IMG/VR virus record: IMGVR_UViG_2671180357_000004
Coordinates: 1-25,327 of that record
Source: a virus
Lineage: Duplodnaviria > Heunggongvirae > Uroviricota > Caudoviricetes
Reading direction: 5' to 3' (one strand)
Length of the DNA: 25,327 nt
The notes under the pieces were generated by a model, which worked only from the letters and a program-made list of their open reading frames with translations, did no database searches and was not told the origin of the DNA. Shown one piece after another: positions 1 through 25,327 of this stretch (position 1 is the stretch's first letter; the number at the start of each line of letters is the position of its first letter). The position numbers and the translations under genes were made by a program.

Positions 1-1
1 G

Positions 2-841
2 ATTCAGGGGGCCAGTCTAGTTCCGCATGTTTATCCACGAGATGTATCACCTATTTTAATACCAATCCCCTGCCCGGATAATCCGGAAAAATCCCTTGCC
101 ATCCAGTCTGAAATCGTTCGGATTCTGGATAAATTTACTGCACTTACCGCTGAGCTTACCGCTGAGCTTAACATGCGTAAAAAACAGTACAACTACTATC
201 GCGACCAGTTGCTGAGCTTTGAACAGGGTGAGGTTGAGTGGAAGACGTTGGGAGAAGTAGCCAAAATACAACGTGGGGCATCCCCCAGGCCAATTGTTAA
301 TTATCTTACTGAACAAGGAAATGGTATCCCATGGATTAAAATCGGAGATACTATCCCCGGCTCTAAATACATTGACAAAACCTTACAAAAAATAACTGCA
401 GAGGGTGCCCAAAAATCGCGAATCTTGAACCCCGGTGATTTCGTCATTTCTAACTCTATGAGCTTTGGCAGACCATATATTTTAAGGATAACCGGAGCTA
501 TCCATGATGGATGGGCATCAATCAGCAATTTTGGTGAAAAATTAAATGCTGATTATCTGTATCACTATCTTTCATCAAAAAAGGTGAAAAATTATTGGGA
601 AAGTAAAATCAATAGCGGGTCGGTCAGTAACTTGAATGCAGATATTATAAAAACATTACCAGTGCCATTGCCTGATAAACAGAAACAAGAGCGAATATCT
701 GCTCTGCTCGATAAATTCGACACCCTGACCAACTCCATCACCGAAGGTCTCCCGCGTGAAATCGAGTTACGCCAGAAACAATACGAGTACTATCGTGATT
801 TACTGTTCAGTTTCCCGAAACCTGAAACTGTCAGTAATTAA
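2..841 (+). CDS. hsdS: Type I restriction-modification specificity subunit HsdS, 3' portion (gene begins upstream of window); Type IC architecture
   Basis: Frame open from window edge to TAA at 839-841. Central conserved region ...SEIVRILDKFTALTAELTAELNMRKKQYNYYRDQLLSF and C-terminal conserved repeat REIELRQKQYEYYRDLLFSF are typical of HsdS; immediately followed by hsdR. Confidence 0.85.
   Translation: MQGASLVPHVYPRDVSPILIPIPCPDNPEKSLAIQSEIVRILDKFTALTAELTAELNMRKKQYNYYRDQLLSFEQGEVEWKTLGEVAKIQRGASPRPIVNYLTEQGNGIPWIKIGDTIPGSKYIDKTLQKITAEGAQKSRILNPGDFVISNSMSFGRPYILRITGAIHDGWASISNFGEKLNADYLYHYLSSKKVKNYWESKINSGSVSNLNADIIKTLPVPLPDKQKQERISALLDKFDTLTNSITEGLPREIELRQKQYEYYRDLLFSFPKPETVSN
146..169 (+). 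repeat. Tandem 12-bp in-frame repeat ACCGCTGAGCTT x2 (encodes TAEL-TAEL) in the HsdS central spacer
   Basis: Direct reading: 146-157 and 158-169 identical, in the hsdS frame. Confidence 0.9.
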
Positions 842-904
842 TTGACCATTGCTACCGATCGGGCCACCTTAACACCCGGTCAGTATATAGACTATTTTTT
901 ACAC

Positions 905-933
905 GCCGGAAGTCACCATTCCCCCCTTCCGGC
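905..933 (+). other. Inverted repeat GCCGGAAG / CTTCCGGC (8-bp stem, 13-nt loop) in the hsdS-hsdR spacer; possible regulatory hairpin
   Basis: Seen in sequence; no T-run follows and the loop is long, so function is uncertain. Confidence 0.25.
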
Positions 934-961
934 CCTTGCCAGACGGCACAAAGGATGCGCT

Positions 962-23439: not shown

Positions 23440-23478
23440 AAAGGCACCCAAGCCGTCGAATAAAAAGAGACATTTGGA

Positions 23479-24534
23479 ATGAGCGTAAACGACAATAAAA
23501 ACATTGCGATAAGCGAAGCATTTTCCGAAACAGACAAAAAGACCGGCGAAGTTGTTACGTTAGTTCCTAACACCAACAACACAGTTCAGCCTGTTGCTCT
23601 GATGCGTCTTGGTCTCTTCGTTCCGACGCTGAAATCGACATCCAGGGGTAGAAAGGGGCAAATGGTCTCTATGGACGCCTCCGCTGAACTCAAACAGCTG
23701 TCTCTGGCCAAAGCCGAAGGGTACGAGGATATAAGGATTGCTGGTCTTCGTCTTGATATGGATAACGATTTCAAAACATGGGTGGGCATCATCCACGCGT
23801 TCGCCAAGCACAAGGTTGTTGGTGACACCGTCACGTTGCCGTTCGTCGAGTTCGTCAGACTTTGTGGCATTCCAACAGCCAGATCGTCCGCGAAGTTACG
23901 TAAGCGCCTGGACAGCTCTCTAAGTCGTATCGCCACAAACACCATCTCATTCCGCAGCAAAGGCTCTGAAGAGTATTACGTTACGCACCTTGTGCAGACG
24001 GCAAAGTACAGTACCAAGAATGACACGGTCGAACTGAAGGCCGATCCTAAGATTTTCGAACTTTACCAGTTCGACAAAAAGGTGCTTTTGCAACTTCGGG
24101 CCATCAACGAACTCTCCAGAAAGGAATCCGCGCAGGCGCTCTACACCTTCATTGAAAGTTTGCCACCAGACCCGGCGCCAATCTCATTGGCTCGCTTACG
24201 CGCCAGACTTAACTTAACCAGCCGCACCATTACCCAGAATGCGACAGTCAGGAAGGCGATGGAGCAGCTGCGAGAGATCGGCTATCTCGATTACACTGAA
24301 GTGAAACGCGGCAGCTCGGTCTACTTCGTCATCCACTATAGACGGCCGAAGTTACGTTCGGCACTGCCGCCATCTATGGCCACGCCTGAAGATCCAGAAG
24401 ATATCTTGCCAGGTGATGATCCGGAGGACATTATCGATGTTGCTCCTGAAGAAAAAGACGGGGAAATGGTCATGTTGAGCAAGGAAGAACTGGCGATTCT
24501 CGAAGAGCTGCGCAAGGCAAAGGCTCGCAAATAG
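23479..24534 (+). CDS. repA: Iteron-binding replication initiator RepA (RepFIB / P1 RepA-like)
   Basis: 351 aa; [72 protein letters not shown] recalled as hallmarks of RepFIB/P1-type initiators; flanked on both sides by iterons. Confidence 0.9.
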
Positions 24535-24537
24535 CCC

Positions 24538-25136
24538 AACCACTGTAGAGAGTAAAAAGGCTCACTATCCACTGTAGTGAGCCTTTTTGTTTATCGGAAA
24601 TGCAATATCCACTGTAGTGAGTAAAAGAAACCGAAGAATAACCACTGTAGGCAGTGCGCACAAATCGCGAAGTAAATGTTAGTGGTTGCAAACATAGATA
24701 AAACAAGGGCTGAGAGGTTAGCGGTCACTGGGTATCTCTGTTAAGTCTACTCTCTACAGCGGTTATCGTCGCTCTCCTCATTGTTGACTATCCACTGTGA
24801 AGAGCAGAATTGGCTGACTTGACCTCTATCCACTGTAGTGAGTGGATATCCGTTTAAAACAGCGAAGATTTACTCTCCATAGTGGATATCCGCTGGAGGG
24901 GGCATTCCATCACTCTCTATAGTGGTTGTTTGTAGTCAGTGAACGCCTGTTTACTCACTACAGTGTATAGCGACCCCGATAATCACCAATTTACTCACTA
25001 CAGTGGATAGTTGATATCGTGGCAGAGGGTTTGCTCACTACAGTGGTTGGGGTGCATACCTGAAGGGTGTTCTACTCGCTACAGTGGTTATGAGCCGGAT
25101 TCACACGCGGTGAGCTGGCTACTCACCGCAGTGGAT
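24538..25136. repeat. Downstream iteron field: 14 copies (6 direct, 8 inverted relative to the upstream arrays)
   Basis: Direct at 24538, 24567, 24607, 24640, 24790, 24828; inverted at 24749, 24872, 24912, 24953, 24993, 25033, 25074, 25121; the inverted run 24872-25121 has 40-41 bp spacing. Confidence 0.85.
24559..24591 (+). terminator. Rho-independent terminator of repA with an iteron embedded in the stem-loop
   Basis: GGCTCACTA-tccactg-TAGTGAGCC followed by TTTTTGTTT; stem/loop contains iteron ATCCACTGTAGTGAGC. Confidence 0.6.
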
Positions 25137-25327
25137 AGTGTTATCAGTGGATTTTCTTCAGCAGACCCCAGAGTGTCCCGGCCTTCGTTGCGAGCTTACC
25201 TGTTTCCGGATCGTACATGTGCCATTCACGTCGCTGGTGGACAATATACCCATCTTCACGTTCCAGTCGTTCCAGTACGCCGGACTGCTTGAACCCTTTG
25301 GCACGCCAGGTGATGCTGCCAACTTAC

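Follow-up and report, generated by a model that had tools for sequence, protein, structure and literature searches.

Salmonella phage SSU5 is known as an isolated phage. The curated group of phage-plasmids called SSU5_pHCM2 forms part of the SSU5 supergroup (PMC7969092). Maintenance outside the chromosome and release of infectious particles are known for SSU5 itself and were shown for several SSU5-like elements (PMC7969092, PMC9600943). Elements of the SSU5 type were reported to be exclusively extrachromosomal, and most of the SSU5-like elements tested were induced by mitomycin and packaged (PMC9600943). The replication genes of SSU5 get typed as IncFIB (10.1101/2025.09.12.675607). Here we analyze a stretch of 25,327 nucleotides, below called the window, that comprises positions 1 to 25,327 of the Caudoviricetes record IMGVR_UViG_2671180357_000004 in IMG/VR. 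The window very probably represents the early, or replication, arm of an Escherichia coli phage-plasmid of the SSU5/pHCM2 type, that is, of a temperate siphovirus whose lysogenic form is a circular plasmid of low copy number. It was surveyed by six-frame open reading frames (ORFs) combined with domain and profile searches (Pfam, PHROG, NCBIfam), with the two weakest assignments tested by structure prediction. The features identified are listed in Table 1.

The assignment follows from collinear DNA identity of about 93% to both SSU5 and pHCM2, together with the match to the E. coli plasmid NZ_CP122497.1. In the megablast comparison with phages, SSU5 (NC_018843) aligns at 93.2% identity and covers 76% of the window (positions 4133-25000), and in the comparison with plasmids, pHCM2 of S. 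Typhi CT18 (NC_003385.1) aligns at 93.4% identity over 74% of the window, which agrees with the kinship that an earlier, sequence-only reading of this DNA had proposed. The collinearity with SSU5 runs from position 4133 to 25309, falls into five blocks, and preserves the gene order from SSU5_094 to SSU5_068, as it does in pHCM2; the iteron sequence and the duplicated origin module, described below, are also common to these elements. The encoded proteins are 80% to 99.7% identical to their SSU5 counterparts, with high values for RepA (93%), ThyA (99.7%), dihydrofolate reductase (DHFR, 98.7%), SbcC (95.9%), and SbcD (97.8%), whereas the RuvC-like protein is just 80% identical. The same reading had claimed an architecture of phage replication and nucleotide-metabolism genes on an iteron plasmid replicon for the whole window. 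This holds to the right of position 4133, but positions 1-4078 are occupied by a partial hsdS gene and by hsdR.

The best overall match is NZ_CP122497.1, a 107-kb E. coli plasmid with 98.9% identity and 93% coverage, typed as IncFIB and non-mobilizable. Many E. coli plasmids of 106-114 kb match the window, with identity up to 99.3%. For instance, NZ_CP122497.1, NZ_CP032074.1, and NZ_CP033252.1 are 98.6-98.9% identical over 91-93% of the window, hsdR included, and, like the window, these SSU5-like plasmids do not have nrdAB. At a larger distance, the SSU5-related phage-plasmid ST13-OXA48phi12.3 of Klebsiella shares the gene set at a DNA identity of about 77% and has a RepA homologue with 50% identity. 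According to the sequence-only reading, a phage-plasmid would be refuted if the rest of the replicon proved to have no genes for virion structure or packaging. In the nearest complete relative such genes are present: positions 4261-28730 of NZ_CP122497.1 encode the terminase large subunit, portal, major capsid, tape measure, tail tip, and tail fibre proteins, with no pseudogene flags in this morphogenesis block, and other genes of the plasmid encode a DnaB-like helicase, a primase, DnaE, a ligase, ParB-like proteins, and Phd/Doc.

Several observations weigh against this interpretation. No virion structural or packaging genes were found in the 25,327-nucleotide window, and the integrity of its replicon as a phage is deduced from the relatives. 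The scan for sigma-70 promoters and terminators around the origin gave no signal above shuffled sequences. The window also bears signs of genetic flux and decay, namely an IS1 end at its right edge, a homing-endonuclease pseudogene, a truncated methyltransferase gene, and the missing nrdAB and SSU5_071/072 genes; several insertion sequence (IS) elements and frameshifted genes occur in NZ_CP122497.1 as well. Further, the single E. coli SSU5-like element that was tested showed no induction (PMC9600943). The IS1 end, the two disrupted genes, the IS elements and frameshifts of NZ_CP122497.1, and the lack of induction could be accounted for by a defective remnant, that is, an IncFIB plasmid that has descended from an SSU5-type phage-plasmid and forms no virions, its phage genes being carried along or serving plasmid or host functions only. 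We regard this explanation as improbable, given that the core genes of the window are all intact and resemble those of an infectious phage at the identities given above, that the morphogenesis block of the closest relative is full, and that the disrupted genes of the window are accessory ones.

Another point speaks against a free phage-plasmid with a size near 107 kb: the exact RepA protein and collinear neighbouring genes occur at positions 349185-370240 of the 403-kb contig JAWPAD010000003.1 (GCA_033341295.1), which may have arisen by cointegration or by wrong assembly. Together with the 188-kb plasmid NZ_CP110979.1, which is among the plasmids matching the window, this contig favors the idea that the window belongs to a larger cointegrate or to a chromosomally integrated copy. 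That idea seems to us very improbable, since nearly all high-coverage matches are plasmids of 106-114 kb and the extrachromosomal state is the only one reported for SSU5-type elements (PMC9600943). The reading of the window as part of an SSU5/pHCM2-type phage-plasmid is therefore retained below.

The replicon proper is formed by repA and the iterons around it. RepA is 47.5% identical to P1 RepA (tblastn, E = 3e-71, with 72% of the query aligned), 45% identical to proteins annotated as 'RepFIB replication protein A', and 92.9% identical to SSU5 RepA; the NCBIfam and PDB sequence searches with this protein gave no match, and its kinship to P1 came from tblastn. Public assemblies contain the exact RepA protein in 1108 blocks. 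When one mismatch is allowed, the sequence CCACTRTAGNGAG occurs at 18 sites, all of them within positions 22937-25087, compared with 0.14 expected in the window, and a 15-mer scan at no more than three mismatches yields 20 sites, all within 22935-25136. Once more degenerate copies in register are counted, about 25 iterons flank repA, with none elsewhere in the window. These results bear out the RepFIB/P1-type repA with iterons that had been proposed from the sequence. The iterons form several groups: five at 22933-23035, six at 23316-23438, and about six forward and eight reverse copies at 24536-25138.

Alignment shows that the two groups upstream of repA belong to paralogous tandem copies of a P1-type origin module, which lie about 380 bp apart and have a mean column identity of 79%. 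The annotated P1 locus consists of a DnaA box, five Dam sites, five incC iterons, repA, and the incA iterons that start from the repA stop codon. In both loci, the DNA immediately preceding repA has a DnaA box, a cluster of GATC sites, and five iterons spaced by 21 bp, in this order, and another array of iterons starts from the stop codon of repA. The differences are in the iteron sequence; in the upstream module, which is single in P1 and stands twice in tandem here; in the downstream array, where P1 has nine iterons, all in one orientation, and the window about 14 in two orientations; and in the absence of parAB after the downstream array here.

The duplication of the origin module is also found in SSU5, in pHCM2-like plasmids, and in phage Cyrano; P1 and the Klebsiella phage ST13-OXA48phi12.3 lack it. 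The latter has one upstream set of five iterons and nine direct iterons downstream, exactly the P1 pattern. Because this SSU5-related element keeps a single P1-like module, the duplication is specific to the RepA lineage of SSU5, pHCM2, and Cyrano. Our literature search found no paper that describes the iterons or the origin of pHCM2, or the origin duplication, although such a paper may exist outside its reach. The downstream array is variable at a shorter scale: compared with four relatives, GCA_033341295.1 among them, the window has one extra 40-bp unit (24950-24989), two other relatives match the window, and hence elements with over 99% identity differ in the number of iterons in this array.

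How the element is regulated and what it does in lytic growth are inferred here from P1 and from phage biology, the gene identities, homologies, and iteron layout being direct results of the comparison. RepA monomers would bind the iterons of 15-19 bp and, together with the host DnaA, open the origin, and the clustered GATC sites would couple initiation to Dam methylation. By analogy with P1, the incA-like array downstream could titrate RepA and handcuff origins, resulting in a low copy number, and the iterons over the repA promoter would provide for autorepression of repA. The leftward gene train might supply dTMP and dNTPs in lytic growth through ThyA, DHFR, the kinase-fold P-loop protein, and the MazG-like pyrophosphohydrolase, and process replication and recombination intermediates by RNase HI, the DnaQ-like 3'-5' exonuclease, the SbcCD-like nuclease, and the RuvC-fold resolvase. 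Genes for a Dam-type methyltransferase and a Rha-type regulator are also part of this train. At the variable cargo end, the type I restriction-modification (R-M) cassette could protect the lysogen and the element.

It is possible, though rather doubtful, that the two origin modules have divided their labour, so that the distal one, with its six intact GATC sites, is the firing origin and the proximal one, which has three GATC sites and lies over the repA leader, serves mainly as the repA operator and an extra iteron sink. If this were true, copy-number control in the SSU5, pHCM2, and Cyrano lineage would be unlike that of P1.

Table 1. Features of the window, ordered by position (+, given strand; -, complementary strand)
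Feature	Positions	Strand	Evidence and remarks
hsdS, C-terminal 279 residues	2-841	+	PF01420 3.6e-22; specificity subunit of a type I R-M system; runs off the left edge
hsdR, EcoR124-like type IC	962-4078	+	HSDR_N, SWI2_SNF2/ResIII, T1R_D3-like, and EcoR124_C domains; maximal ORF from 842
Remnant of SSU5_095 DNA methyltransferase gene	4144-4614	-	93.6% identity to residues 1-157 of the 561-residue SSU5_095 (tblastn)
Conserved phage protein, SSU5_094 homologue	4754-5353	-	phrog_5508
Rha-family regulator/antirepressor-like protein, SSU5_093 homologue	5435-6250	-	PF09669 2e-07; annotations of relatives
Two small conserved phage genes (62 and 166 residues)	6357-7055	-	phrog_10411 (166-residue protein)
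RNase HI	7198-7863	-	PF00075 7.8e-46
Conserved hypothetical protein, 76 residues, SSU5_089 homologue	8401-8631	-	
Phage Dam-type N6-adenine DNA methyltransferase	8834-9427	-	PF05869 4.4e-37
Conserved phage protein	9583-10554	-	phrog_5235
1258-bp insertion with gene of 340-residue HNH_2-domain nuclease (gene at 10791-11813)	10571-11828	+	PF13391 7e-11, residues 242-291
DnaQ/RNase T-type 3'-5' exonuclease	11816-12376	-	PF00929 4.4e-21
Conserved phage protein	12386-12820	-	phrog_5373
P-loop protein, nucleoside/nucleotide-kinase fold	12869-13513	-	Weak sequence matches: AAA_28; thymidylate-kinase phrog_2107 6e-10
DHFR	13513-13989	-	PF00186 4e-35; two substitutions relative to SSU5_083
Conserved hypothetical protein, 131 residues, between DHFR and ThyA	13986-14381	-	Weak HAD/PNKP-phosphatase similarity, below threshold
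ThyA, 367 residues	14401-15504	-	PF00303 E 3e-79; E 3e-64 to solved ThyA structures; catalytic PCH motif aligns
MazG/PRA-PH-type nucleotide pyrophosphohydrolase	15684-16562	-	PF01503 3.6e-09; SSU5_080 annotation
RuvC-fold Holliday-junction resolvase-like protein, 189 residues	16828-17397	-	phrog_159 'RuvC-like resolvase' 2e-53
Pseudogene remnant of 258-residue endonuclease-like gene	17394-17753	-	tblastn matches to residues 1-12 and 152-259 only
Conserved phage protein, SSU5_076 homologue	17728-18474	-	phrog_2117
SbcC/Rad50-like ATPase, 638 residues	18464-20380	-	Profile matches; the maximal ORF of 720 residues reaches too far, into the adjacent small gene
SbcD/Mre11-like metallophosphoesterase	20610-21695	-	PF00149; SSU5_073 homologue
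Conserved 214-residue protein	22092-22736	-	phrog_2105; annotated as ASCH-domain protein in phage Cyrano
Distal origin-like module	22822-23037	+	DnaA-box-like TTATTCACA, six GATC in 55 bp, five iterons at ~21-bp spacing
Proximal origin-like module, directly upstream of repA	23197-23440	+	TTATACACA, three GATC and degenerate heptamers, six iterons
repA	23479-24534	+	Rep3_N/Rep3_C domains; P1/RepFIB-type iteron-binding initiator (binding predicted)
incA-like control array	24536-25138	.	~6 forward and 8 reverse iterons; begins at repA stop; P1 incA comparison
IS1 terminal inverted repeat, first 19 nucleotides	25309-25327	+	Interrupts a 70-residue SSU5_068-like gene

Nearly all of the listed genes are on the minus strand, from position 22736 down to 4754. 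The thyA, DHFR, RNase H, sbcCD-like, and RuvC-like genes proposed from the sequence were all recovered by domain searches, the RuvC-like one also by its structure model. ThyA (SSU5_081 in the phage) scores 220.8 bits with TIGR03284 against a cut-off of 108. We considered dCMP or dUMP hydroxymethylase as an alternative function and rejected it, as the protein passes the ThyA equivalog threshold and the DHFR gene is nearby, with one small ORF between the two genes. Relative to the 264-residue enzyme of E. coli, this ThyA has two insertions (at about residues 120-156 and 205-261), the PCH motif being retained.

Single-sequence PDB searches gave no useful information on the RuvC-like, HNH_2, and P-loop proteins, and for two of them structure models were needed. 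The model of the P-loop protein (predicted local distance difference test, pLDDT, 85.6) has PDB fold matches at template modeling (TM) scores of 0.5-0.6, the best of which mix deoxyribonucleoside, thymidylate, adenylate, and shikimate kinases, and no curated family threshold was reached. The dNMP-kinase-like gene of the sequence-only reading thus survives as a P-loop protein with a kinase fold, predicted to be dNMP-kinase-like at the fold level only.

For the RuvC-like protein, the sequence-profile match to RuvC had an E-value of just 0.12. Its model has a pLDDT of 92.1, and the top 12 PDB matches are all RuvC proteins, from four bacteria (E down to 5e-10, TM 0.64/0.77). Residues D10, E79, H160, and D163 are invariant in an alignment of 30 homologues. 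The model shows a fold of the RNase H type, and the D-E-H/D-D catalytic set is present; the protein is predicted to act as a resolvase.

The matches of SbcC to the LmuB, PbeC, and DndD profiles of PADLOC, which would make it a defence protein, were rejected as generic similarity of SMC ATPases, because its partner is an SbcD-type phosphoesterase and both are within the conserved phage replication block. Four ORFs, 4119-4667(+), 16626-16994(+), 22911-23252(-), and 25011-25292(+), were considered spurious, as they have no family hits and coincide in part with iteron arrays or with the remnant of a gene. No tRNA was found in the window by the tRNA scan, and the Rfam search of the window at gathering thresholds likewise found nothing.

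The left end of the window, positions 1-4078, has no counterpart in SSU5 and holds a type I R-M cassette. HsdR is complete, with its nuclease, SF2 motor, and C-terminal domains, and scores 1605 bits with the REase_I family of PADLOC, which found no defence family in the window beyond the type I restriction enzyme. In NZ_CP122497.1 the genes stand in the order hsdM-hsdS-hsdR, and a corresponding hsdM would fall to the left of the window. The hsdS stretch 253-709 has no alignment to NZ_CP122497.1 and is presumably a target-recognition domain. In the window, the cassette stands in place of most of the SSU5_095 methyltransferase gene, of which only codons 1-157 remain, cut off where the cassette begins. 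The hsdR and hsdS DNA is 95% identical in the P1-like Punavirus vB_EcoM-673R5, where it adjoins phd/doc.

Compared with SSU5 and pHCM2, the window has an additional HNH_2 nuclease gene, an endonuclease pseudogene, and an IS1 insertion. The HNH_2 insertion is absent from SSU5, pHCM2, and NZ_CP122497.1 and occurs in one of the 213 matching plasmids, NZ_CP033252.1, where it is 99.8% identical to that of the window. Its G+C content is lower (about 44-46%), and the encoded protein has 11 homologues among 5.8 billion proteins. The HNH_2 domain is C-terminal, and the N-terminal 210 residues belong to no recognisable family; this protein may serve in homing, as a free-standing nuclease, or in defence. 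The endonuclease-like gene is intact in NZ_CP122497.1 and absent from SSU5. Compared with the intact gene, the remnant in the window has a frameshift and an internal deletion of 418 bp, with the breakpoint at 17716/17717. Two segments present in both SSU5 and pHCM2 are missing from the window and its E. coli lineage, nrdB-nrdA (3.5 kb) between positions 16683 and 16707, and SSU5_071/072 (0.9 kb) between positions 21926 and 21951. Finally, after position 25308 the window diverges from all relatives examined, which continue without IS1, and the same 19-mer that ends the window adjoins an annotated IS1A transposase in one relative locus. In several relatives, a cluster of genes for an SNF2 helicase, a DUF4391 protein, an N6/N4 methyltransferase, and a ResIII-nuclease is found on the right-hand side of repA.

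This kind of element has already been described and is common among enterobacteria, and its gene set and interpretation are likewise known, so that the current understanding is unchanged by these findings; the duplicated origin and the rare HNH_2 insertion are the sole mildly new items. The occurrence of one R-M cassette in P1-like and SSU5-type elements illustrates the exchange of defence cargo between two families of phage-plasmids. In practical terms, the SSU5 DHFR gene is dfrA51, whose expression in E. coli raised the minimum inhibitory concentration of trimethoprim (PMC12217456), and the DHFR of the window is 98.7% identical to DfrA51. The analysis matters mainly for annotation, as such elements are routinely typed as 'IncFIB plasmids' though they are temperate phages.

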